Shown: positions 1-13,300 of the stretch, in pieces
Layout of the letters: the number at the start of each line of letters is the position of its first letter
How positions within the stretch are numbered: position 1 is the first letter of the stretch
Virus record (IMG/VR): IMGVR_UViG_2681813205_000017
Coordinates: 1 to 13,300 of that record
Reading direction: 5' to 3' (one strand)
DNA length: 13,300 nucleotides
DNA from: a virus
Lineage: Duplodnaviria; Heunggongvirae; Uroviricota; Caudoviricetes
Translations under genes and position numbers: made by a program
Notes under the pieces: model-generated
The model's database searches: none
The model's input: only the letters and a program-made list of their open reading frames with translations
Told to the model about the DNA's origin: nothing

Positions 1-162
1 ATTACTGCTTCAGGTTGGTGTATTGCTTGCATCTTTCCCTTTTCATTCATAAAGATAGATCAAACAACAAAACCACCACCACCCCCCTGAAAAGGCTCAT
101 AAATAGCGAAAATCCGCGAGGTCTCCGCCCCGTAACAGGTCCATATGCCGGAAAGGACCCGC

Positions 163-184
163 AAAAAAGCCGGATTTCTCCGGC
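163..184 (-). terminator. Intrinsic terminator ending the capsid operon (GCCGGA-GAAA-UCCGGC stem-loop plus U6 on the - strand)
   Basis: 6-bp GC-rich stem with a GNRA tetraloop followed by six U on the - strand RNA, 7 bp downstream of the stop of the 191..604 gene. Confidence 0.7.
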
Positions 185-190
185 CTTGTC

Positions 191-604
191 TCAGATGGTT
201 TTCAGTATGCGATCGATGTCGCCGTCATCGCCCGGGTTTCTGCCATCGTATGCCATGCCAGCTGATACGGCTTGTGGGCTGTGCATGTCCATAAAGTTTT
301 CAAAGGCTGCGGTAAGCTCTGGTGCAACCTTCGGGCGTTCCTGCTCTATGGTCATGTTCAGGATGTTTTTAGCCGTATCAACATCAATACAAGGCACGTT
401 TGCCATTGCACGTAACAGCGGCTGATAGTCGTCAGATTCATGAAGCGCCATAATCGCATCAGCGCGCGGCTTGTCCTTCTCTTCCAGGCTGTTAAGTTGA
501 TATACGGCCTCGTAGGTTGATAAACCTCTGTCAGCCATTGCCCGCGCTTCGGCTTTAAATTTACTCGCCAGCGGTAGCGTCATGATACTTTCATTCGTTG
601 CCAT
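191..604 (-). CDS. Hypothetical protein, last gene of the capsid operon (137 aa)
   Basis: ATG at 604 preceded by a GGGGG Shine-Dalgarno. Starts 13 nt after the stop of the decoration-like gene and is followed by an intrinsic terminator. The + strand ORF 15..425 overlapping it lacks such context. Confidence 0.6.
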   Translation of the reverse strand: MATNESIMTLPLASKFKAEARAMADRGLSTYEAVYQLNSLEEKDKPRADAIMALHESDDYQPLLRAMANVPCIDVDTAKNILNMTIEQERPKVAPELTAAFENFMDMHSPQAVSAGMAYDGRNPGDDGDIDRILKTI

Positions 605-616
605 CGTTCCCCCTGC

Positions 617-952
617 TTATCGCGCCAGCGGCTGAACGGATACGCCAGAACCCGCAAAGGCGGCGCATTTTTTCGCGTCGGTGTCGGCGCTCTCAGGCCA
701 GTTAACGGCGGCAATATTGAATATCCCCGTCTTGTAGCACTGTGCTGATTTCTGCGTCGACGTGTCCACGGGGTACGAGGTCAGATAAACAGCCTTGCCA
801 GATTCCTGACCATCCCACGGCTTAAACTCGCCATTTTCCGCCAGCATCAGCGGGGTAAATTCCTGAATAACGCCAGCATCAGCAGCAAAATGTACCAGCG
901 TCGTGGATACCTGCTGACTACCTGCAAATAACTCAATGTATGGAGTGTCCAT
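617..952 (-). CDS. Head decoration protein, lambda gpD-like (111 aa)
   Basis: Translation shares recalled gpD motifs (TPLML, WDG, YK-G-F, WPE, KK-AFAG-VSV) and similar length. GGGGGG Shine-Dalgarno 5 nt upstream of the ATG. Immediately downstream of the capsid gene. Confidence 0.7.
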   Translation of the reverse strand: MDTPYIELFAGSQQVSTTLVHFAADAGVIQEFTPLMLAENGEFKPWDGQESGKAVYLTSYPVDTSTQKSAQCYKTGIFNIAAVNWPESADTDAKKCAAFAGSGVSVQPLAR

Positions 953-964
953 AGAATCCCCCCG

Positions 965-2020
965 TTAACCAATTTTGACGATAACAAATTTGCGAATATC
1001 TGCCGGTACCGGCTGCGGTGCGCTGTGCGTCTGCACGTACTCAATCGCCGGATCGCCGTCCTCAATCCAGTTTTTCGGGTAAAACATGTTTTGCGTTGCG
1101 CCCGTTCTGACCGCTTCCTGATCCATAATCGCACCATAGGCCACCAGCCCTTTATTGTTGGTGTTACCCAGGACCAGCAAATCAGGCTCAAGGAAATATT
1201 TTTCGGTGCCGTCGCTGTCAGTGTATTTGCCGGAATAGACGACAAGGGCAATATCGCCCAGATAGCCTTTAAAGCTCACCACTTCACCCAGGTTTTTACA
1301 GGCCAGTTCTGCGGCGGATTCTGAACCACGGGAAAGGTCGTACAGTTCGCGGAATTTTTTAAAGCTGCGTAACGTGCGCCATACTTCAGCGCCCATAATC
1401 ATGACGTTTGCGGGGCAATTGCCCTGATCAGCATAAAGCTCGATGTCATAGATTGGATCGTGTGTTTCTTTATCCAGCTCAGACCATTTTTTACCGTCAG
1501 CCTGTTCTATGATATTGCTTTCCGGGATCTTCCAGTCGATTTCATAGCGTTCTATGCCTTCGCCCTCAATGAGGTTTTTTCCGGTCGTTACCGCATTCAC
1601 CGCCAGCCATTCCACGCGTGCCTTAATGGCGTTTATCTGGCGGCGCATGTTGCCAGTAATCAGGCGCATACGGCGATAGGTAGGATCGTTAAGCTGTGCC
1701 GGATCTTCTCCAGCCATGCGCATGATGGTTTTTGTTGGATCGATTTCGTGTTTGGGTTTCATGTAGCCTGGTTTAATCGTGCTGGTTTCGTACCCTTTAT
1801 CGCGCTGGACCTGACTACCCACCATAGGCGAACAGAACGCTGACATCGTAACCTCTTCAATGTCCAGGGTGTCCAGAATGATGTTCTGGGTGTTGAAGGT
1901 CGCCACGTTCGGGAAAAACAGCGTGGTAAACAGCGGACTGAATTTAAATTCTGCAATATCCCCGCGATTCAGGTACGCGAAAAGCTGGTTAGTGTTAAGT
2001 GCCGTTGCTTTGCCTGCCAT
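965..2020 (-). CDS. Major capsid protein, lambda gpE family (351 aa)
   Basis: Translation aligns along its length with recalled lambda gpE (FKF-PLF, PGYMKPKHE, DPTYRRMR, LRSFK, RGSES, VVYSGKY, LVLGNT, YPKNW, GDPA, SAP). GGAGGTG Shine-Dalgarno; start overlaps the upstream stop (TAATG). Confidence 0.85.
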   Translation of the reverse strand: MAGKATALNTNQLFAYLNRGDIAEFKFSPLFTTLFFPNVATFNTQNIILDTLDIEEVTMSAFCSPMVGSQVQRDKGYETSTIKPGYMKPKHEIDPTKTIMRMAGEDPAQLNDPTYRRMRLITGNMRRQINAIKARVEWLAVNAVTTGKNLIEGEGIERYEIDWKIPESNIIEQADGKKWSELDKETHDPIYDIELYADQGNCPANVMIMGAEVWRTLRSFKKFRELYDLSRGSESAAELACKNLGEVVSFKGYLGDIALVVYSGKYTDSDGTEKYFLEPDLLVLGNTNNKGLVAYGAIMDQEAVRTGATQNMFYPKNWIEDGDPAIEYVQTHSAPQPVPADIRKFVIVKIG

Positions 2021-2226
2021 TATTCACCTCCATGCGTCTGATTCATGCCCAGCGCCGCGCGTAAATAGGCGCGGACCTGCCAGCCTGTTGACGGCTCAAC
2101 CATCGCCAGCGGATCAAGTCCTGCCGCAATGCCTGCTTTTACGTTCTGCTGGTGGCGTTCCTTGAGCGCCTTCACGATGTCGGGGCTTATGTACACCGAA
2201 ACACCGCCTTTTTTCTCTTCAGCCAT
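2020..2226 (-). CDS. Hypothetical small protein, first gene of the capsid operon (68 aa)
   Basis: ATG at 2226 with a purine-rich ribosome-binding site. Stop overlaps the capsid start codon (translational coupling). Lies ~55 nt downstream of a near-consensus sigma70 promoter. Confidence 0.6.
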   Translation of the reverse strand: MAEEKKGGVSVYISPDIVKALKERHQQNVKAGIAAGLDPLAMVEPSTGWQVRAYLRAALGMNQTHGGE

Positions 2227-2282
2227 AGTAAGAAATTCCTCTTCGACTTAAAAAATCATAACTGGATGTTTATCCAGTCCTG

Positions 2283-2310
2283 ATTATAATCAGAATTGCA
2301 TTTTATGCAA
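2283..2310 (-). promoter_or_regulatory. Sigma70-type promoter of the capsid operon (-35 TTGCAT, 16-bp spacer, -10 TATAAT on the - strand)
   Basis: On the - strand, TTGCAT (complement of 2305..2310) and TATAAT (complement of 2283..2288) with a 16-bp spacer. Both hexamers sit inside perfect palindromes (TTGCATTTTATGCAA and CTGATTATAATCAG). Confidence 0.55.
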
Positions 2311-2390
2311 TGATATTGAGTTATGTTGCAAATTATGAAATGATTATCCCGATCACGAACGCCAGTGCATCCAAAAACCTCATATGCAAA

Positions 2391-2429
2391 AGCCCGATAA
2401 GAACCCTCTGACCTTATCGGGCTTTTTTT
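2391..2429 (+). terminator. Strong stem-loop with T7 tract (AGCCCGATAAG ... CTTATCGGGCT TTTTTTT); + strand intrinsic terminator geometry, possibly bidirectional
   Basis: 11-bp stem followed by seven T on the + strand. On the - strand the same hairpin is followed by UUUUG. No + strand gene upstream, so it may act mainly as a second - strand terminator or insulator. Confidence 0.5.
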
Positions 2430-2435
2430 GGGCGC

Positions 2436-2457
2436 AAAAAAGCCGGATTGCTCCGGC
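2436..2457 (-). terminator. Intrinsic terminator after the 74-aa gene (GCCGGA-GCAA-UCCGGC plus U6)
   Basis: Same module as 163..184 and 2799..2821 but with a GCAA tetraloop; lies 20 bp downstream of the stop at 2478. Confidence 0.7.
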
Positions 2458-2477
2458 TATGTGTGCTGTGTGCTGGC

Positions 2478-2702
2478 TCAGTCTCTGATCTCTTTCAGAA
2501 ATTCTATCAATGCATCTATCTGTTCAGGATTTACCGCCAGCATTTCACCGGACAGAGCACATCTCACAAAACCATGCTGATCCTTTTCAATCAGTGCGCC
2601 CGTCTCCAGGAATGCGCGGTAATCATTGATGCTCATCGTCTCCATGTTGTCAGCATGGTATTTATCACGCTGTTTTAATATCTCATCAAATTTCATCGGC
2701 AT
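2478..2702 (-). CDS. Hypothetical protein (74 aa), monocistronic moron-like cassette
   Basis: ATG at 2702 preceded by AGAGGA. The gene is bracketed by intrinsic terminators on both sides (2799..2821 upstream, 2436..2457 downstream). Confidence 0.6.
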   Translation of the reverse strand: MPMKFDEILKQRDKYHADNMETMSINDYRAFLETGALIEKDQHGFVRCALSGEMLAVNPEQIDALIEFLKEIRD

Positions 2703-2798
2703 TGTTTTTTTCCTCTGTTGTGTCTGTTTGTTTCAGATAGTAACTATGCCTGACCGTGACGAAAACCCGGTAATGCGCCATACCGTTTCAACTGGTGC

Positions 2799-2821
2799 AA
2801 AAAAAGCCGGATTTCTCCGGC
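2799..2821 (-). terminator. Intrinsic terminator after the PerC-like gene (GCCGGA-GAAA-UCCGGC plus U7)
   Basis: GNRA-tetraloop hairpin plus U-tract on the - strand, 8 bp downstream of the stop at 2829. Confidence 0.7.
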
Positions 2822-2828
2822 TGTTTGA

Positions 2829-3104
2829 TTAGCTGTCCTGGTAATTGCGCCATATTTCATCACCAGCACCATCTATACCCATTTCGGCATAAGTGCGATC
2901 GACTGCCTTTTTCAGGTCTCCGAAATTATCCGGCGGCTCCGGTGCCCTCTGTGCCTTCCTTGAACATTCCAGCCGTCGCATCGTGATGTGATGCCGTTCC
3001 TTGTCTGTCTCCACCAGCTGCATGACTTCACCCCATCGCGCCGCCGCCCTCCGGTAAAAGCCTTTCGCCTCTAGTTCCTCCGCTATGCGGTCATGTACCA
3101 TCGT
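2829..3104 (-). CDS. PerC-family transcriptional regulator (91 aa)
   Basis: N-terminal AEELEAKGFYRRAAARWGEVM matches the recalled PerC/Pch signature (LE-G-WRRAA-RW). The likely start is the ATG at 3104 (GAGGGGG Shine-Dalgarno, 8 nt after the SSB stop) rather than the ORF-track start at 3221, which would overlap ssb by 110 nt. Confidence 0.65.
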   Translation of the reverse strand, partial: TMVHDRIAEELEAKGFYRRAAARWGEVMQLVETDKERHHITMRRLECSRKAQRAPEPPDNFGDLKKAVDRTYAEMGIDGAGDEIWRNYQDS

Positions 3105-3111
3105 CACCCCC

Positions 3112-3522
3112 TCAGAACGAAATATCATCACCGTAAGGGTCATCGCCTCCCGCTGGTGGCTGATTACCCTGTGTGCCTGTGGTTTTGCGTCTGTTCCCGC
3201 CAGGACGTGCCGCACGGGCACTGATTACGCTGTCTGCAATAACCTGATACCCCTGCCGTGTTTCCCCGTTCTGTCCGGTCCACTGGCTTACCTGCATCGT
3301 GCCGGATACGCTGGCAACATCGCCTTTTTGATGTTTAGCCAGGAAATCGGCCTGTTTGCCAAATGCGATAACCGATAACCATAACGTCGCCTGTCCGTCA
3401 TGTGCCTGGCTGCATGGCAACGATACCGCCATACGCGCCAGAGTCATCGGTGTGCCCTTGCTGGTCTGTTTTACCTGCGGGTCGTCCACCAGCCGCCCGT
3501 AAGCGGCTATCTGTGCCGTCAT
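3112..3522 (-). CDS. ssb: Single-stranded DNA-binding protein (136 aa)
   Basis: OB-fold core resembles E. coli SSB (W-x-x-V-x-x-FGK ... KG ... W), followed by a Gly/Gln/Pro-rich linker and an acidic C-terminal tail DDPYGDDISF (E. coli SSB ends DDDIPF). GGAGAGGTG Shine-Dalgarno; ATGA overlap with the upstream gene. Confidence 0.85.
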   Translation of the reverse strand: MTAQIAAYGRLVDDPQVKQTSKGTPMTLARMAVSLPCSQAHDGQATLWLSVIAFGKQADFLAKHQKGDVASVSGTMQVSQWTGQNGETRQGYQVIADSVISARAARPGGNRRKTTGTQGNQPPAGGDDPYGDDISF

Positions 3523-3770
3523 AATTCCACCTCTCCGGTTTTAACGTTGATGGTTGTTACCTGTTCCGCTTCGGCAATCTCCCGTTCTGTCAGCGTGGCA
3601 AAGTTTGCCGCCGCCGTGGTCATGAATGCGCTTATCAGGTCGGGATGTTCCTTCGCGTATCCTTCCCGCGTGTGGCGGTCTATCGTTCTGATTGCCACCT
3701 TTAAGGTGTGCTCAGTCATGTCTAACGCTTTATATTTTGGCTCTGTTCTGTCTCTGCGTTTTTGGGTCAT
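3519..3770 (-). CDS. Hypothetical protein (83 aa from the ATG at 3770; alternative start at 3800 gives 93 aa)
   Basis: ORF translationally coupled to ssb (ATGA overlap). The ATG at 3770 has a GAGAGG ribosome-binding site and avoids overlap with the iterons. Confidence 0.5.
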   Translation of the reverse strand: MTQKRRDRTEPKYKALDMTEHTLKVAIRTIDRHTREGYAKEHPDLISAFMTTAAANFATLTEREIAEAEQVTTINVKTGEVEL

Positions 3771-3782
3771 TTCTCGCAACCT

Positions 3783-3973
3783 CTCACTTTTTCGCCTCAC
3801 TTTTTCAAGCGTCTCACTTCGTCGCAGCTGGGATTTTCGGTTTTTCTATGTGTGTGTTTCATAAGTATTTTTTTACCCCTCACTTTTGAGGATGTATACA
3901 GGTCGAAAAGTGAGGGAGAGCAGGCTAATTTTGGCCCTCTTTCTATCCACCTCGCTTTTGCTCCTCACTTTTA
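3783..3973. repeat. Putative replication origin: six CTCACTT(TT) iterons flanking an AT-rich stretch
   Basis: CTCACTT copies at 3783, 3796, 3813 and 3879, an inverted copy at 3906..3915 (AAAAGTGAGG) and another at 3963, plus a degenerate copy near 3950. AT-rich segment 3836..3876. Lies directly 3' of the helicase gene. Confidence 0.55.
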
Positions 3974-5371
3974 TAGCGGCGCTACATCATCCCCATCGAT
4001 ACGAATAACCCCATCTTTTTCCAGCTTGTACAGCCAGCGCCGGAAGTTTTTCATTTCATACCCCAGCTTTTTCATGTCATCACGTAACAGCGGGATCGTG
4101 CACTTGTCGCCGTTCTGTGTGCGTGAACGGATGCACCCCCATAGCGCGGTATGGTTTTCCGTCTTGTTCCCTGCCTCCTCGATGCGCTCCAGTTCAACAG
4201 GAGGGCGCGGATCATCCACCACCACCAGCGACGTGATTAATTCACCGTCAGCGTCGGTAAAAAGCTCCACCACGCGTAAGTCATATGCGGCTTCTTTGAG
4301 TTCCTCCGCGTCCTTCATTTTGGTGCATGAGATAACCAGCGCTTCGCTTCCTGCGTCCTCCCTGCGTATCCGGTATTCAGCATCCAGCGAAGCACGAAAT
4401 GCACTGGAACCGCGCGCGCCTTTCGTCTCATCCTTGCCGGAATGGTGAACCACCAGCACCGTGGCCCCTGTGCGTCGTTTCAGTTCGTCACAACCACGGA
4501 TAAACGCCCCCATATCACGGGAATCATTTTCATCATTCCCACCAAAGCAACGCGCCAGCGTATCCAGAATAATCATGCGTACAGGTTTACCCGTTTCCCG
4601 CTCCACCTGACGGGCAGCGATAACCATTTCATCAACATCAAGCGGGGCAGCCGGAAAGATGGGGCGGTTTACCAGATACAGATTTTTCACCTGCTCATCG
4701 TGCACAACCTCCCAGGCTTTTACACGACGCGGAACACCTATACCGCCTTCACCAACCACATAGAGAACCGCACCATGTGCAACCCTGCGGCCTCCCCACT
4801 GGCGACCAGTGGCAACATGGCACGCCCACGATCCGGCAAGGAATGATTTATAGGACCCGCTAGCCCCGTATATGCTGCATAGCGATACCGCCGGAATAAT
4901 CCCCTTAACCACGTAATCCAGTTGCGTGTCGTATCCGGTAGATCCAACGCTCATCGGTAGCGTGGTTTTTCGCTGGTGGTTTTTTTCTTCCGCCGGCTCT
5001 TTCCCGCGCACCCGTTCCAGGTATTCGCGCCAGTTCTCCCGCATATGGCTGTGCATCCCTTCGGGGTAATAATTCGCATCAGTTACACCCGCCGCCGCCA
5101 GCTTGTGCGCAATGGCATTAATATTTGATGGCCTGATGTGGCCTGCCTTGTACAGCCGGACACAATAGCGCCCCTCGTCGATGATTCTCAGGTCTGCCAG
5201 TTCATCCAGTTGATCATCAGCCAGCACAACGGGAGGCACATTATCGCCAGCCAGTCGCCCGTCCTGTTCCTGCCACTGTTTCGCATGTGCCCAGGCATCA
5301 CTACCCGCAAAAATAATGACTTCGGTCATCTTGTCGTAAGGCTGTTTTTTTAAGTTCGGTGCGCTTTTCAT
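3971..5371 (-). CDS. Replication initiator / replicative helicase, RecA-fold ATPase (RepA / AAA_25-like), 466 aa
   Basis: Walker A-like GASGSYKS, Walker B-like MIILDTLARCF, and VLVVHHSGKD typical of RepA/DnaB-like helicases of satellites and plasmids. ATGA overlap with the upstream gene; iterons immediately downstream. Confidence 0.75.
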   Translation of the reverse strand: MKSAPNLKKQPYDKMTEVIIFAGSDAWAHAKQWQEQDGRLAGDNVPPVVLADDQLDELADLRIIDEGRYCVRLYKAGHIRPSNINAIAHKLAAAGVTDANYYPEGMHSHMRENWREYLERVRGKEPAEEKNHQRKTTLPMSVGSTGYDTQLDYVVKGIIPAVSLCSIYGASGSYKSFLAGSWACHVATGRQWGGRRVAHGAVLYVVGEGGIGVPRRVKAWEVVHDEQVKNLYLVNRPIFPAAPLDVDEMVIAARQVERETGKPVRMIILDTLARCFGGNDENDSRDMGAFIRGCDELKRRTGATVLVVHHSGKDETKGARGSSAFRASLDAEYRIRREDAGSEALVISCTKMKDAEELKEAAYDLRVVELFTDADGELITSLVVVDDPRPPVELERIEEAGNKTENHTALWGCIRSRTQNGDKCTIPLLRDDMKKLGYEMKNFRRWLYKLEKDGVIRIDGDDVAPL

Positions 5372-5667
5372 TTCTTGCCCCTGAATCCGTTAATCATGGT
5401 TTTCAGCTTCTGGATGTTTGCCCGTGCCCTGGCGTTGCTGGTGGGCACGTTATGCGGCGCGGTCTGTACCAGAGAAAAATCACGCCGGAACTGATAAACA
5501 GGCATCACGCAATCATATTCGTAACCTTCACGGCGGTAGGTTACGCGCCGTTCTTCCACGCCCTTAATCATTACCGTGCCGCCGTACTGGTCGCGGTAAA
5601 TATCACCGCGCGTAAATTTAGGGTGAGTGTTGCCACTGGCAGTTAAGCCAGAATATTTAAGTTTCAT
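5368..5667 (-). CDS. Hypothetical protein (99 aa), translationally coupled to the helicase gene
   Basis: ATG at 5667; stop overlaps the helicase start (ATGA). Basic, Tyr/Arg-rich; no recognisable motif. Confidence 0.55.
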   Translation of the reverse strand: MKLKYSGLTASGNTHPKFTRGDIYRDQYGGTVMIKGVEERRVTYRREGYEYDCVMPVYQFRRDFSLVQTAPHNVPTSNARARANIQKLKTMINGFRGKK

Positions 5668-5672
5668 TATTT

Positions 5673-5906
5673 TTATTCTCCGGTGTGCTGTTCTTTATAT
5701 CTGTCGTGCAATAGATCTATTTCTTGCAGTTCCATTATTACAGGATCAAGAAGCGTTATTAATGCCGTGGCAATTCTTGATTTTTGTTTGTCGCGTTCAT
5801 TGTCGCCAAGTGTTTCAAGCCATATGCGCAATATTTCCAGCATGTTTTCACTGTGAGAAAGTGCAAGAAATGCGCGGTCTATTGTTTGGTGGTAAATATC
5901 ACGCAT
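5673..5906 (-). CDS. Hypothetical protein (77 aa)
   Basis: ATG at 5906 overlaps the stop of the upstream gene (ATGCGTGA). Part of the same coupled gene chain. Confidence 0.55.
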   Translation of the reverse strand: MRDIYHQTIDRAFLALSHSENMLEILRIWLETLGDNERDKQKSRIATALITLLDPVIMELQEIDLLHDRYKEQHTGE

Positions 5907-6357
5907 GGCTTACATCCTCAGGAAATTTTCTTCTATAACGCGCCTCTGCCACATATTCCGCATAATCGGCGGCGATATTCAGTACATCAAGCCCCGTTGA
6001 TTTATATTCTCTCGTGGAAAGTAAGAAAAAAGCCGCTCTAATAAGTTCTGGCATTGACGAAAGCGCATCAGCCGCATCATCAGGAACGCCGGAAAATTCC
6101 TGTTTCAGGGAATTAAAACGATCATCACGCATAACCCCCCCCCCATTTTCACAATCAGCAACAAGAATATTTTTAGCGTCATTCAGCGACCGCGTTGCGG
6201 TGTATCGGATACATTCCAGGGCGAATAGTGTGTATTCTTCCCTTTCTTCCCTTTCTTCCTTTTGTGCAAGCTCTGCTGTGCATTCAATATCAATAAGCGC
6301 GTGCATCAGCGTAGTGAGTGCGGCGGCGGCTGCGTCCGGTGTGGTTTTATTGCACAT
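5899..6357 (-). CDS. Hypothetical acidic protein (153 aa from the ATG at 6357) containing an in-frame G10 tract
   Basis: ATG at 6357 has a GGAGGGG Shine-Dalgarno 3 nt upstream. The ORF-track start at 6411 has no ribosome-binding site and would overlap the upstream gene by 65 nt. Contains an EEREEREE repeat and the Gly-Gly-Gly encoded by the C10 run at 6135..6144. Confidence 0.55.
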   Translation of the reverse strand: MCNKTTPDAAAAALTTLMHALIDIECTAELAQKEEREEREEYTLFALECIRYTATRSLNDAKNILVADCENGGGVMRDDRFNSLKQEFSGVPDDAADALSSMPELIRAAFFLLSTREYKSTGLDVLNIAADYAEYVAEARYRRKFPEDVSHA

Positions 6358-6577
6358 GTACCCCTCCGCATTTTTTTTCGTTAGAAATAAGCGTTCTTCT
6401 TTCCTGTTCATCGATCAGGAATACGCAGACCTCACCGCTAAGGCGTTTAAGTAAGCCGATGATTGCCCCTGATTCGCTGTCGGTCATCATGCCTGGGTAA
6501 TCCTCTGCCAGTGCGCAAATAACTTCGATTTGGTGGGCGCGTTCTACTGCCTGTTGTAGTGTGATTTCCTGGCTCAT
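6347..6577 (-). CDS. Hypothetical protein (76 aa)
   Basis: ATG at 6577 with a GGGGG ribosome-binding site; ATGA overlap with the candidate upstream ORF. Contains an A8 tract on the coding strand. Confidence 0.55.
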   Translation of the reverse strand: MSQEITLQQAVERAHQIEVICALAEDYPGMMTDSESGAIIGLLKRLSGEVCVFLIDEQERRTLISNEKKCGGVHVQ

Positions 6578-6774
6578 AAGCCTACCCCCTGACGAATACG
6601 GGCAGCGAATACCATCACGCAGCCAGCCGGGGATTGCAGGCGTGCTTCCTGTTCGCTGGTGGCCTCAATGGTAATCACGCGCGGTTGTGCAGTGCTCAGG
6701 GCGATAAAACGCCAAATGTATTTATTCAGGTTGTGCGAGTCCCGCCCTTGCGGGTGTGTGGTATGATTTCTCAT
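6574..6774 (-). CDS. Candidate small ORF (66 aa), putative first gene of the early operon
   Basis: Not listed separately in the ORF track; it is the C-terminal end of the spurious 381-aa ORF. ATG at 6774 with a GAGG ribosome-binding site 6 nt upstream; stop overlaps the next start (ATGA); ~100 nt downstream of the predicted - strand promoter. Confidence 0.4.
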   Translation of the reverse strand: MRNHTTHPQGRDSHNLNKYIWRFIALSTAQPRVITIEATSEQEARLQSPAGCVMVFAARIRQGVGL

Positions 6775-6872
6775 AGCTACCTCGATACTCTCGTTATCGT
6801 TGGTGGTTAGAAGCCCCGTTACTGCTCCTACAGTGCGGGGTTTCGTCGTTTCTGCACCTTGCATTAACAAGG

Positions 6873-6950
6873 TGTAAGTAACTTTATTTATAGGTGGCTT
6901 ACATGTCAATGCTTTTATGTAAGACTTTTTATGTGTATATTGTCTTACAC
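6873..6950. promoter_or_regulatory. Divergent switch region: four TGTAAG / CTTACA operator half-sites overlapping a - strand TTGACA-N17-TAAAGT promoter
   Basis: Half-sites at 6873 (TGTAAG), 6898 (CTTACA), 6919 (TGTAAG) and 6945 (CTTACA), alternating in orientation. On the - strand a perfect -35 TTGACA (complement of 6904..6909) and a -10 TAAAGT (complement of 6881..6886) with a 17-bp spacer. Confidence 0.5.
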
Positions 6951-6970
6951 TTTCATTGAGAGGATTACAG

Positions 6971-7276
6971 ATGGCTACAGGTTCAAAAAACGCAAAATCA
7001 CAATCACTGACAGCTCGGATCCCGCATGATGTTATTGAAGGCATGGAATCCGTAAAACTGGACGGTGAAAGCAACGCCGGATTCATAGTAACCGCCATGC
7101 GCGGTGAAATCGCCCGCCGCCAGGCAGAAGGAAGCGGAGAAAACCTCCTGATTTCTTCGCTCAATGCACTGGCGCAGGTGGAAAAACTCGGAATCAAAGC
7201 CGCCGAGGAGATCGGGCAGCTCGTCACTGTCGCACGTGAAGAACTCCAGCGCCGCAAGACTAAAGAACCAGAGTAA
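6971..7276 (+). CDS. Putative transcriptional regulator, candidate repressor of the early operon (101 aa)
   Basis: ATG at 6971 with a GAGAGGA Shine-Dalgarno. Divergent from the - strand operon and immediately downstream of the operator cluster. Function is inferred from position only. Confidence 0.55.
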   Translation: MATGSKNAKSQSLTARIPHDVIEGMESVKLDGESNAGFIVTAMRGEIARRQAEGSGENLLISSLNALAQVEKLGIKAAEEIGQLVTVAREELQRRKTKEPE

Positions 7277-7318
7277 TCACCATCAGCGCCGTGGTGTAAG
7301 GTATTACGGCGCATTGCT

Positions 7319-7507
7319 ATGCAGGACAACACAATGACCGATAAAGAATTGACCAAAACATTATCACCGGCACGGAAAAGACGGCGCAGAAAGATAGAGC
7401 ATGAATCAGAAAGATTCGCGCCATGTGCTTTTGCCCTTGAGCAATTCCTTAAAGAGTACAGGGAAAAGCGCTCATTGCAGGTATGGCAACGAACTGAACC
7501 AGACTGA
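7319..7507 (+). CDS. Small basic protein (62 aa; alternative start at 7334)
   Basis: ORF following the regulator on the same strand, with a Lys/Arg-rich stretch (ARKRRRRK). Followed by an intrinsic terminator at 7603..7630. Confidence 0.4.
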   Translation: MQDNTMTDKELTKTLSPARKRRRRKIEHESERFAPCAFALEQFLKEYREKRSLQVWQRTEPD

Positions 7508-7602
7508 TAGCATTGCCCACCAGCCTGATAGCGACTATCATTGCCGTTCTTATGTTTGGGATCACACACACAAACGGCGCAGCGGGTTATCTGTTCAGAA
7601 AG

Positions 7603-7630
7603 GCGGCTCCATTTCGGGGCCGCTTTTTTT
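7603..7630 (+). terminator. Intrinsic terminator for the + strand regulator genes
   Basis: GCGGCUCC ... GGGGCCGC stem (one G-U wobble) with a 5-nt loop, followed by seven T. Confidence 0.6.
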
Positions 7631-7776
7631 ATGTCTGAAAAACCCCAATTTTGTTGTTTTTCAGTTTCACCAGGGCGAACGAATCCCCGCCCACGTTCTG
7701 GCGTATATTCAATCTTCATGGTTATAGCTCTGTGTTCAGATGATTGATGTGTGGCGGCTGCGTGCCGCCAGCGTGA

Positions 7777-7965
7777 TTAATGAACTGCCTTGCAGCTATC
7801 CTTCCAGGCCAGAACCTCGGATAAAGACCAGCCAACGGAACGACCGCCAAGTTTACGACGTGATGGGAATTGTCCGGCCTTTTCCAGGCGGTAGCGACAC
7901 GTACGGCTAAGGCCGGTTAGTTTTTCGCATTCTTTTTCACGTATAAACCGATCAGTGCTTAACAC
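7777..7965 (-). CDS. alpA: AlpA-family phage regulator / excisionase-like protein (62 aa from GTG at 7965)
   Basis: CEKLTGLSRTCRYRLEKAGQFP ... GGRSVGWSLSEVLAWK matches the AlpA helix-turn-helix signature. The ORF track starts at a TTG at 8046, but a GTG at 7965 has an AGGGGGG Shine-Dalgarno and gives the typical AlpA length. Confidence 0.75.
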   Translation of the reverse strand: MLSTDRFIREKECEKLTGLSRTCRYRLEKAGQFPSRRKLGGRSVGWSLSEVLAWKDSCKAVH

Positions 7966-8238
7966 TATTGCCCCCCTTTCGTTTCTTAAAGAGTCATCAG
8001 GTGTCTTATTGTGTCGTATTGTTCCCGCTAGAGTGATGAATGGCAAATATTGAGGATGTATGATTTACAGAAAATGAAACAGTAAGAATAAAATCTTTTA
8101 AATTCATGTTAATACAAAGGCATAAAATATTGTTTCATGCCTTTTTTCTCACGCGTTAAAGCGTTATTCGCTAATGTATAAAAAAACAGTCACACAAATA
8201 AAATCAGTCACTTATAAACCTGTGTACTTTTTCGCCTC

Positions 8239-8288
8239 TTGTTCGTGGTTGTTCCACGTTGTTTCACATTGTTCGCCGTTGTATCTGT
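8239..8288. repeat. Five tandem 10-bp units each beginning TTGT (helically phased) between int and alpA
   Basis: TTGTTCGTGG TTGTTCCACG TTGTTTCACA TTGTTCGCCG TTGTATCTGT, an exact 10-bp period. Confidence 0.6.
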
Positions 8289-8330
8289 GTGCTTATCCAG
8301 TATGCGCATACTGAAAAAACACGAAAAAAA

Positions 8331-9548
8331 TTATTTTCTTCTGGCTGCTGGTAGTGCGGTTACGTTTTCATGTGTTCCCGCCAGTATCCCTAACCGCTCC
8401 ATCCACATATCCAGCGCATTGCGTTTAGCATCCAGATAACGGGAATGATTATAAACTCGCTGCATTCCTGGCATCTGGTGGCCTGTAAGCTGCTCCACGA
8501 CATGCGGATCAACGCCTAAATCGTTCAGCATGGTTGTAAAGGTGCGCCGGATGTCATGCAGTGACCAGTGAGGATGATTAAGCCTCCTGTGCGCTAATCT
8601 TCCATACTGCGATACGCTGGCCTCCTGTTTCACTTCCCCCAGCAATAAGCCCGTGTGCCTGTTCTGCTCCACCAGCTGCGTGACGAACGGCAGTATTGCT
8701 TCCGGTATGGGCCGGAATATTGCCACCTTCGTTTTGCTGTGTTCTTTCGGCACGGTCCAGAGCATTTCGGTAAAATCCCACTCGCTGATCTCCGATAACC
8801 TCAGTTCTACCGTCCGGCATCCGAACACAATCAGGAGGCGGATTAACGCGATGTAGTAGGGGGAGAATATTTTTTTGTCCAGTGCCTGCAATAATTCGCC
8901 CAGTTCTTTGGTGCTTAAGACACGCTCGCTTATATCCGGTTTTTTCCCAACGTCCGCCACACTCATATCATCAAGAACGTTGCTGATTGCATAGCGCCGC
9001 CTCCGGCAGAACTTAAGCGCCTGTTTGCACGTCTGTAGCAAGAATCCGGCAGTAACAGGCGTTCGCTTTGCCACCTGGTCAAAACAGGCCAGCCAGTGCC
9101 GTAGCTCGCATTTATCCAGCGGCATAGCACCAATGTGCTGTATTACGTGATTATTAAGTCGCCTTTTCAGGGCGATATAATCCACGCGGTTTTCCTTTAC
9201 GTAATACTCAAGCCAGTAGGTGAGCGCATCGCCAACCGTTACGGGCTTTAACGCTTCCTGTACGGTGTAATTCATCTCATGACGTGGATTTTTCCCCTCA
9301 GCCAGCCATGTGCGACACTGTGCGGCTTTTTCCCTGGCTGCTTTCAGGCTCAGATCAGGATAACTTCCCAGCTTAATGCGTTCGGGTCGTGTCTCCCTTC
9401 CCGTTCCGGCCCTGTATGTGAAATACCAGGTCAATTTCCCTGATGTTAAATATTTCACGCTCAGGTTTCCGCCATCACTATAAAACGTGTTTTTCTCCGC
9501 TGGCTTACCATGAAGTTTCCTTAGCAAGGTATCGCTCAGTTTGTTCAT
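8331..9548 (-). CDS. int: Tyrosine integrase, P4-like family
   Basis: N-terminal arm-binding-type motif (KPAEKNTFYSDGGNLSVKYL), C-terminal catalytic region with HDIRRT and VYNHSRY (R, H-x-x-R, Y). Start is probably the ATG at 9548 (MNKLSD...); the ORF track uses a GTG at 9560. It is the outermost island gene next to the junction. Confidence 0.85.
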   Translation of the reverse strand: MNKLSDTLLRKLHGKPAEKNTFYSDGGNLSVKYLTSGKLTWYFTYRAGTGRETRPERIKLGSYPDLSLKAAREKAAQCRTWLAEGKNPRHEMNYTVQEALKPVTVGDALTYWLEYYVKENRVDYIALKRRLNNHVIQHIGAMPLDKCELRHWLACFDQVAKRTPVTAGFLLQTCKQALKFCRRRRYAISNVLDDMSVADVGKKPDISERVLSTKELGELLQALDKKIFSPYYIALIRLLIVFGCRTVELRLSEISEWDFTEMLWTVPKEHSKTKVAIFRPIPEAILPFVTQLVEQNRHTGLLLGEVKQEASVSQYGRLAHRRLNHPHWSLHDIRRTFTTMLNDLGVDPHVVEQLTGHQMPGMQRVYNHSRYLDAKRNALDMWMERLGILAGTHENVTALPAARRK

Positions 9549-9584
9549 TGCTCTGCTCACGTTTTACCCCCTCTTTACGAAAAA

Positions 9585-9650
9585 GTGACTACACCAGTGA
9601 CTACACCGATCGTTGCACAAAGGGCTACAACGTGAAACAAGCTGGAACAA
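9585..9650. promoter_or_regulatory. int upstream region with a 12-bp tandem repeat (GTGACTACACC x2) and four 10-bp phased units ending ACAA; candidate arm-type or regulator binding sites
   Basis: GTGACTACACCA GTGACTACACCG at 9585..9608. CGTTGCACAA AGGGCTACAA CGTGAAACAA GCTGGAACAA at 9611..9650, which is the reverse complement motif of the array at 8239..8288. Confidence 0.45.
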
Positions 9651-9757
9651 GGAAAATCACAAATCTGTTGATAATCAAAAACATAATGCACAGCCTGAAA
9701 CATTATGAAACAGCAAAAAACACTAAATGATAAAATGCTGTTATTCTTAACCCGCTG

Positions 9758-10642
9758 GTGCAACACATGGTCCGCTGGCGAGTGCCGCGTGTACTGGCGG
9801 TGTCGATTTTGATGACCATCATCGTGATGGCGATGGTGTTGCTATTAGCTTATCTGGGTTCCGCGCTCAACGAGTTGACGCGGACGTTACCGCAATATCG
9901 CAACTCTATTATGACGCCGCTGCAAGCTCTTGAGCCGTTGTTGCAACGCGTAGGGATTGACGTCTCAGTTGACCAGCTGGCGCATTACATTGATCCGAAC
10001 GCGGCGATGACGTTGCTCACCAACTTATTGACGCAGTTATCTAATGCCATGTCATCAATATTTTTATTGCTGCTGACGGTGCTGTTTATGCTGCTCGAAG
10101 TGCCACAATTGCCCGGAAAATTTCAGCAAATGATGGCGCGTCCGGTTGAAGGGATGGCGGCGATTCAACGTGCAATTGACAGTGTTTCTCATTATCTGGT
10201 GCTGAAAACAGCCATCAGCATCATCACCGGCCTGGTCGCCTGGGCGATGCTCGCCGCACTCGATGTTCGCTTCGCTTTTGTCTGGGGATTGCTGGCCTTT
10301 GCGCTTAATTACATCCCTAATATTGGTTCAGTTCTCGCGGCAATCCCCCCTATCGCTCAGGTACTGGTGTTTAATGGCTTCTACGAAGCGTTGCTGGTGC
10401 TGGCGGGATATCTGCTGATTAATCTGGTCTTCGGCAATATTCTGGAGCCGCGCATCATGGGACGTGGGCTGGGGCTTTCCACATTGGTGGTATTTTTGTC
10501 GTTGATTTTTTGGGGATGGTTGTTAGGACCGGTGGGTATGCTGCTTTCCGTGCCGTTAACAATTATTGTCAAAATTGCGCTTGAACAAACAGCGGGAGGT
10601 CAAAGCATCGCCGTTCTGTTAAGCGATCTCAATAAAGAGTGA
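9758..10642 (+). CDS. tqsA: AI-2 exporter TqsA (YdgG), 5'-truncated by the island insertion (294 codons retained)
   Basis: Translation matches recalled E. coli TqsA from its internal [15 protein letters not shown] segment to the C-terminal SDLNKE. An in-frame TAA at 9731..9733 lies directly upstream and there is no native N-terminus or ribosome-binding site. The ORF-track start is an internal GTG. Confidence 0.8.
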
Positions 10643-10662
10643 CGGCCTCCGCAGAGGCCGTC
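10641..10662. terminator. Shared stem-loop between convergent tqsA and pntB (GACGGCCTC-cgca-GAGGCCGTC)
   Basis: 9-bp perfect GC-rich inverted repeat lying exactly between the two stop codons. Confidence 0.55.
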
Positions 10663-10666
10663 AGGG

Positions 10667-12058
<1,392 letters not shown>

Positions 12059-12065
12059 TTACCCC

Positions 12066-13300
<1,235 letters not shown>

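Follow-up and report, generated by a model that had tools for sequence, protein, structure and literature searches.

In the immI region of phage P22, the ribbon-helix-helix proteins Mnt and Arc act at the divergent promoters Pant and Pmnt, where an antisense RNA, sar, is also found. Stl and Rpr, the master repressors of the phage-inducible chromosomal islands (PICIs) of Gram-positive bacteria, are larger helix-turn-helix proteins. In the Staphylococcus aureus pathogenicity islands (SaPIs) and their relatives, the Stl/Rpr gene is divergent from the early (replication) operon and its product acts on the intergenic region, Stl being relieved by helper-phage antirepressor proteins, whereas induction of the Gram-negative PICIs runs through AlpA, an activator whose expression is turned on by the helper phage (PMC6092414). 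The capsid-forming PICI (cf-PICI) EcCIEDL933 also requires alpA for induction (10.1101/2022.09.08.507074), and a cf-PICI preprint describes the gene 3' of alpA as variable and 'of unknown function' (10.1101/2025.02.11.637232). Here, we analyzed a 13,300-nucleotide stretch of DNA from a Caudoviricetes record (IMG/VR IMGVR_UViG_2681813205_000017, positions 1 to 13,300; hereafter, the window), and in particular the region that separates an early operon on the minus strand from a divergent YlcI/YnfO-family gene on the plus strand (6971..7276). Sequence comparison makes it quite probable that this gene encodes a ribbon-helix-helix repressor that regulates itself as well as the early promoter, P(-), and that exists in many specificity types. 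Switches of this kind are well known; the satellites concerned had been assigned no repressor in the papers searched.

The locus resembles P22 immI in that the putative operators lie on core elements of two divergent promoters and the proposed repressor is a small ribbon-helix-helix protein. As in Mnt, an N-terminal ribbon-helix-helix domain is followed by a C-terminal helical part, which in Mnt serves oligomerization. Furthermore, the repressed operon begins in both cases with a small gene of the regulator or killer type, with an antisense RNA over a ribosome-binding site of that operon, although this RNA is a candidate in our locus. Unlike in P22, however, we found no significant sequence similarity of the protein to Arc or Mnt, and the predicted array consists of four to five single-dimer sites at 22-23 bp, where P22 has a pair of half-sites separated by one helical turn. 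P22 also employs two regulators in a phage immunity region controlling an antirepressor, whereas a single one is proposed here, in a satellite with AlpA. The position of the gene, divergent from the early operon and facing the intergenic region on which its product would act, recalls that of the SaPI repressors (PMC6092414), but the small ribbon-helix-helix protein has no detected relation to Stl or Rpr, and its gene, which converges with alpA, separates the latter from the early operon.

The initial annotation had read this region as a divergent switch with four alternating TGTAAG half-sites at 6873, 6898, 6919 and 6945. Exact copies of the hexamer indeed occur on the plus strand at 6873-6878 and 6918-6923 and on the minus strand at 6898-6903 and 6944-6949, with start-to-start distances of 25, 20, and 26 bp, so that number, alternation and the first two positions hold, whereas the last two were each one base off. 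Similarly, the inverted central pair CTTACA/TGTAAG does exist, but with a spacer of 14 rather than 15 nucleotides and a span of 6898..6923 rather than 6898..6924. The minus-strand TTGACA (6909..6904), which this pair was said to overlap, lies within its spacer and abuts CTTACA, without overlap with the hexamer. What has to be replaced is the notion of half-sites of palindromes: the hexamers are the cores of four separate 11-bp sites resembling GTGTAAGACAC, each a pseudo-palindrome GTGT-N3-ACAC in its own right, whose starts are spaced 22, 23, and 23 bp, that is, at a phasing of about two helical turns. Across the window, GTGTAAGACAC is matched best by these four copies, with one to three mismatches, and the sole other match with two mismatches or fewer is located at 8913, within int. 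Scoring of site matches across the window revealed no further operator copies near alpA or int better than chance. Another TGTAAG, at 7295, was rejected as an operator because the stretch that holds it is 100% identical between the operator types A and B described below.

The sites map to the core elements of two back-to-back promoters. P(-), at 6881..6909 on the minus strand, is made up of the -35 TTGACA (6909..6904), a 17-bp spacer and the -10 TAAAGT (6886..6881), with a predicted start at ~6874. It was the sole sigma-70-like promoter that the scan found in 6500-7400, which bears out the consensus -35 that had been proposed to face the early operon, and its layout (TTGAC/T-17-TAAnnT) is also read in the homologous loci inspected. 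P(+), the promoter of the repressor gene itself (6913..6941, plus strand), mirrors P(-) about ~6911 and combines a -10-like TATATT (6936-6941) with a poor -35, TTTTAT (6913-6918). Its TGTGTATAnT is conserved in all loci, and downstream of it lie the ribosome-binding site (GAGAGGA) and then the start codon of the gene, ATG at 6971. Since the consensus promoter scan does not call it, P(+) is a putative promoter. Site 1 (GTGTAAGTAAC, 6872..6882, plus strand) covers the last two bases of the P(-) -10 and the predicted start, and its position, -99 from the ylcI ATG, is kept in all specificity types. Site 2 (ATGTAAGCCAC, 6894..6904, minus strand) fills the spacer beside the -35 of P(-), starting at its last base, the one base they have in common, and sits at the conserved position -77. 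Site 3 (ATGTAAGACTT, 6917..6927, plus strand; conserved position -54), the weakest copy in every type, is placed in the P(+) spacer and abuts the poor -35 position, whereas the best copy, site 4 (GTGTAAGACAA, 6940..6950, minus strand; conserved position -31/-32), covers the last two bases of TATATT and the predicted plus-strand start at ~6948. This is the only spot of the window with one hexamer or its complement four times within 80 bp. A chance origin of the cluster in an A+T-rich intergenic region might find some comfort in the 25 of 300 whole-window shuffles that hold a four-copy hexamer cluster somewhere, but shuffling the 196-bp intergenic region itself yields one in just 1 of 2000 cases, and the same positions are occupied across related loci despite their differing sequence. 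These comparative data refute the chance explanation, whose likelihood we regard as negligible.

Further evidence comes from 91 related loci, 11 of them from other species and 80 from viral contigs, which span Escherichia, Enterobacter, Yersinia, Photorhabdus, Xenorhabdus, Pantoea, and other genera. Sites lie at -99, -77, -54 and -32 from the ATG in all types, some of which lack site 3. Their sequence co-varies with the strand of the adjacent protein that is predicted to read DNA (residues 11-18). Thus, QSLTARIP (type A, SLTA; 24 loci) accompanies the site core GTGTAAGACAC, and QLTTVRVP (type B, LTTV; 44 loci) the core GTGTGTTTCA. KQISIRIP pairs with GTGTGATTCA in 5 loci, QMTTIRVP with GTGTAT(A/C)TCAC in 11, QIKNVR- with GTGTGCAT / GTGTGTAT in 2, and QQLNARFP with GTGCGATTCA in a single locus. 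Identical strands go with identical cores across genera, as seen when the Photorhabdus locus L003 is set beside the E. coli-type L035 and L036, or the Yersinia locus L004 beside L034, and within one locus all three to five copies switch sequence jointly. Site orientation varies between specificity types, and therefore the alternation noted in the window is not essential. In an alignment of 117 homologues, residues 12-15 reach an entropy of 1.9 bits versus 0.4-0.7 around them, while S10, R16 and P18 vary little or not at all. The operators and the first 20 repressor codons form a specificity cassette (6822..7030) that is the sole divergent stretch between otherwise near-identical islands: identity falls there to 37-57% in comparisons of the window with L050, L043, L034 and L056, and partial matches to the module in E. 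coli genomes start at codons 6-17, in agreement with the cassette border. The claim that the sites are operators of the 6971..7276 product gains support from this covariation, together with the uncoupling of AlpA and Icd-like alleles. The most economical reading is a repressor of P(-) and of its own gene that has diversified into specificity types much like phage immunity regions.

A fifth site, at -121, occurs in L036, L035, L006, L055 and L082, 22 bp past site 1 and within the early leader. The window instead carries an inverted repeat, CACCTTG-N6-CAAGGTG (6855-6874), with which the 5' end of the early transcript would fold into a hairpin.

The same comparison bears on the possibility that the array is bound by another factor of the island or the helper, for example AlpA, with the ribbon-helix-helix gene as a bystander. 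AlpA is the experimentally established regulator, which activates downstream genes (PMC6092414), and our literature search found no definition of AlpA binding sites in E. coli PICIs. However, AlpA proteins 98-100% identical to that of the window occur beside type B operators (L043, L050, L056), and type A operators occur with AlpA alleles at 58-98% identity, including divergent ones at 58-69%. The Icd-like alleles are uncoupled from operator type as well, divergence of the cassette stops at codon 20 of the ribbon-helix-helix gene, and the placement of sites on core promoter elements is the geometry of repression, not activation. We therefore consider binding by such a factor a very unlikely explanation. 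A replication function has also to be weighed. Ribbon-helix-helix proteins of the ParR and omega kind bind repeat arrays that flank promoters, and 11-bp sites with a period of ~22 bp in an A+T-rich stretch look iteron-like. Yet the repeats co-vary with the strand of the adjacent ribbon-helix-helix protein rather than with distant genes, as judged from the AlpA and Icd-like alleles, and no ParA/ParM-type partner is encoded in the plus-strand unit. PICI origins have, moreover, been reported 3' of pri/rep (PMC10111431), all of which renders iterons or a ParR/omega centromere-like array very improbable.

The proposed repressor is a 101-amino acid (aa) protein with a predicted N-terminal ribbon-helix-helix at approximately residues 9-54 and a long C-terminal helix (59-98). 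NCBIfam NF041551 (YlcI_YnfO_N) scores 71.1 bits over residues 9-50 (E 5.5e-20), above its curated cut-off of 30, and the Prokaryotic Genome Annotation Pipeline (PGAP) also names the counterpart in L001, the locus of E. coli 2013C-4991, YlcI/YnfO. The predicted monomer structure contains the strand-helix-helix fold of ~45 residues, from which a ribbon-helix-helix fold is predicted for the product. PF07704 is weakly matched by 20 of 30 homologues, with a best E of 0.0011. The alignment of the protein to Arc by hhalign, itself non-significant, has a sensible register, with LTARIPHDV opposite FNLRWPREV, and places S12, T14 and R16 on Q9, N11 and R13, which we take to be the base-contacting residues in the Arc-operator structure. 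Alignment to Mnt was also non-significant (E 0.16). A Foldseek search of the PDB with the full-length model returned no match because the long C-terminal helix dominates that model, and the sole hit of a sequence-profile search of the PDB, a marginal one, joined residues 45-86 to the Hef helix-hairpin-helix domain (E 0.008). Neither did tblastn of the repressor retrieve a match from 50,697 phage records, nor did the literature search yield a paper giving a YlcI/YnfO-family protein a function. A putative homodimer that would insert its paired N-terminal strands into the major groove is indirectly supported by the hypervariable residues 12-15 and their covariation with the operator core.

Within the C-terminal region (residues 59-87; 7144-7230), an invariant G74 lies inside a helix that AlphaFold predicts as continuous. 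In Superficieibacter and Xenorhabdus, short forms of 59-61 aa (L009 3001-3186, L010 1126-1308, L011 899-1078, and L012 1019-1198) consist of the ribbon-helix-helix domain and a basic tail, without the C-terminal helix. These loci display three strong sites, at -102/-99, -77 and -32, so that the basic layout does not depend on the C-terminal domain.

In the mechanism that we propose, dimers would read each site through the N-terminal beta-strand, the invariant R16 probably contacting the GTG/CAC frame, which is constant, and residues 12-15 the center, which varies. In the quiescent state, dimers on the phased sites would close P(-) and throttle P(+). Such a protein could serve as a maintenance or immunity repressor, its specificity types preventing cross-talk among co-resident or incoming islands. 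That the 6971..7276 product binds the sites and represses is, in our judgment, likely. Several points weigh against it. Binding itself is something we infer from sequence patterns, as are repression rather than activation and cooperativity via the C-terminal helix. No Pfam family matches the protein at E 0.01, and the alignment to Arc reached only an E of 0.013 and a probability of 3%. Site 3 is weak, and P(+) has no recognizable -35. Since the operators adjoin the N-terminal codons, part of the covariation could be due to co-inheritance, although the joint change of all copies in a locus makes co-inheritance alone an insufficient explanation. Overexpressed AlpA alone induces the island EcCICFT073 (PMC6092414), and the repressor is therefore not obviously limiting. 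Finally, the switch module is present in 415 of 5426 complete E. coli genomes (~8%), besides several other genera, and is therefore not universal among such islands. The proposal puts forward a candidate repressor for Gram-negative PICI-type islands, together with its operators and the residues that determine specificity. It also predicts immunity-like specificity types among satellites, and offers naturally orthogonal repressor-operator pairs.

The plus-strand unit extends beyond the repressor gene to a previously unannotated open reading frame (ORF) of 57 aa, ORF57 (7334..7507), which is probably co-transcribed and matches phrog_21027 (E 1.2e-15). It is conserved at the protein level in E. 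coli-type loci (51-100%), duplicated in L055 and absent in other genera. This arrangement raises the alternative of a type II toxin-antitoxin pair, in which the ribbon-helix-helix protein would be the antitoxin of ORF57 and the sites would merely autoregulate that operon. CopG, ParD and RelB are indeed autoregulators that share the predicted fold and have operators overlapping their own promoter. Unlike in these systems, however, no conserved toxin partner exists here, since ORF57 is missing from the other-genus loci that retain the full operator array, the array also covers a divergent promoter, and the cassettes are diversified like phage immunity types. ORF57 lies 58 nt from the repressor gene, without overlap, and no toxin family matches it. 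Besides, pure autoregulation would have no need of the pair of sites, out of four, that lies over the divergent early promoter and its consensus -35. A toxin-antitoxin function of the pair is thus improbable, if less so than the other alternatives to an autoregulated repressor of P(-). As for ORF57 itself, it has a basic N-terminus and an ERFAPCAFALE-FLKEY motif.

The initial annotation had further presented the switch as the induction checkpoint of the island, which exceeds the evidence because published work makes AlpA the inducer: AlpA is required, and helper phages switch on alpA. In the window, alpA (7777..7965, minus strand; 62 aa; PF05930, E 5.4e-17) encodes this known activator of Gram-negative PICIs (PMC6092414). 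The local architecture suggests how both regulators may coexist, namely that AlpA-driven read-through may bypass the repressor rather than inactivate it. The first early gene (6574..6774, minus strand), preceded by the ribosome-binding site GAGG (6783..6780), encodes an Icd-like protein of 66 aa (NF033153, E 2.4e-19), also called by PGAP in the 99.5% identical L001. The protein matches PHROG 'transcriptional repressor' families (phrog_6196, E 2e-44), and tblastn retrieved vB_KppS-Ant as its sole match in a phage collection in which the presence of P4 is unconfirmed. This gene is the 3' end of a 381-codon ORF (6574..7719, minus strand) that runs without a stop across the leader and the operators and along the antisense strand of the repressor gene and ORF57. 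The long ORF is in the alpA frame, from which it is parted by the alpA stop codon (7777-7779) alone, and its first ATG lies 58 nt past that stop. In the 42 distinct intergenic regions compared, this frame accumulates 52 stops in total and is free of them in 30, whereas the other two frames hold 196 and 242 stops, 3-9 each in most regions, and stay open in 0 and 2 of the 42 regions, respectively. Such openness is frequent, not universal, the commonest type B variant not being open. In many loci, the alpA stop and the start of the long ORF overlap or are separated by 5-60 nt. Starts that overlap the stop or follow it by 5-11 nt suggest translational coupling. PGAP labels its 5' part an Icd-like pseudogene, and its translation, in which family scans detected no domain, resembles antisense junk.

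A closely similar design is known from satellite P4. According to PMC10111431, which cites Forti et al. (1999), the P4 immunity region comprises the promoters PLE and PLL, the nested genes kil and eta, the CI RNA and Vis. The short kil gene forms the tail of the long eta. The latter begins 5' of an internal early promoter and beside an alpA homologue, and translation of eta prevents the termination of transcripts from the upstream promoter. As in P4, an alpA homologue is here followed by a long ORF with an internal early promoter, the 3' end of which is a first early gene of ~65 aa, and we propose the 381-codon ORF as the counterpart of eta, with the Icd-like gene as kil. A frame kept open is what P4 logic leads one to expect if its translation protects upstream-initiated transcripts from termination. 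Unlike P4, whose immunity relies on the CI RNA (Rfam C4/isrK) and its seqA/seqC targets, and for whose RNA the Rfam searches revealed no equivalent, this locus has a protein repressor gene antisense inside the long ORF. Upon induction, AlpA-dependent transcripts would cross a convergent terminator and the long ORF would be translated over the operator region. The early operon would then be expressed whatever the state of the repressor, and convergent transcription would silence the repressor gene. This route of induction is modeled on P4 and on the antitermination by AlpA described in Pseudomonas (PMC7969949; PMC9371919). It links AlpA activation to P4-style, translation-coupled read-through in a testable form. 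The terminator in question would be the strong hairpin GCGGCTCC/GGGGCCGC at 7602..7630, between the convergent alpA and repressor units, with a T7 run on the plus and a weaker tail, CTTTCTG, on the minus strand. It was read from the sequence and missed by the consensus terminator scan, and weak Rfam alignments of either strand contain its stem.

A further layer may be provided by RNA. A candidate cis-antisense small RNA (6774..6856, plus strand) consists of stem-loop 1 (6774-6809), complementary to the Icd-like ribosome-binding site and ATG, and a terminator-like hairpin (6810-6844) with a T-rich tail. The consensus fold reaches -27.1 kcal/mol on the plus strand versus -9.6 on the minus strand, and the single-sequence fold -35.2 kcal/mol with a z of -4.7 versus a z of -1.6. 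In the terminator helix, 271 of 279 cells are paired on the plus strand versus 234 of 279 on the minus strand. There are 37 G.U pairs on the plus strand, and 10 predicted pairs are kept by two-sided compensatory changes. These data suggest an antisense RNA of ~80 nt. A possible extended -10, TGGTATGAT, lies at 6759-6767 on the plus strand, but it is just a candidate promoter because it overlaps conserved codons. No Rfam family matched the whole window at the gathering score, and searches of 6400-8300 with E up to 10 retrieved no C4, isrK or other credible family. In the quiescent state, this RNA would block Icd-like translation. Combined into one translated frame, the elements could make up a three-layer switch, with an antisense-encoded repressor and its operators, a small RNA against a kil-like Icd, and AlpA/long-ORF read-through that carries RNA polymerase through the repressed region. 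We advance this composite only tentatively, as a possible rather than a probable arrangement. If true, a bypassed repressor would explain why Gram-negative PICIs apparently need an activator and not an antirepressor.

As to its setting, the window is an E. coli chromosomal island inserted in tqsA, which is truncated, with pntB beside it. A 1.5-kb query spanning the switch is 99.5% identical to L001, where the annotated order is integrase, helix-turn-helix regulator, 'Icd-like' pseudogene, YlcI/YnfO family protein, Icd-like protein, small hypotheticals, DUF4222, RepA-family helicase, SSB, and PerC, a gene run that adjoins a truncated tqsA and pntBA. The window likewise has int (8331-9560), the gene for an AAA_25 helicase (3971-5371) and those for SSB, PerC and the lambda-type capsid E and decoration D proteins, all on the minus strand. 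With int, alpA and a replication gene co-oriented at a chromosomal attachment site and with captured phage head genes, it shows the hallmarks of Gram-negative PICIs and cf-PICIs. Its gene order is that given in PMC6092414, PMC10111431 and 10.1101/2022.09.08.507074, and the best explanation is that the window holds a Gram-negative PICI-type satellite. Helper-phage induction and packaging have been shown for the related EcCICFT073 and EcCIEDL933 (PMC6092414; 10.1101/2022.09.08.507074). The late genes of the two tqsA islands differ, since the window encodes the lambda-type proteins at 191-2020, while L001 encodes an HK97-type capsid, protease and portal (1-3245), despite the 99.5% identity of their regulatory regions; one switch module has therefore been joined to different late modules.
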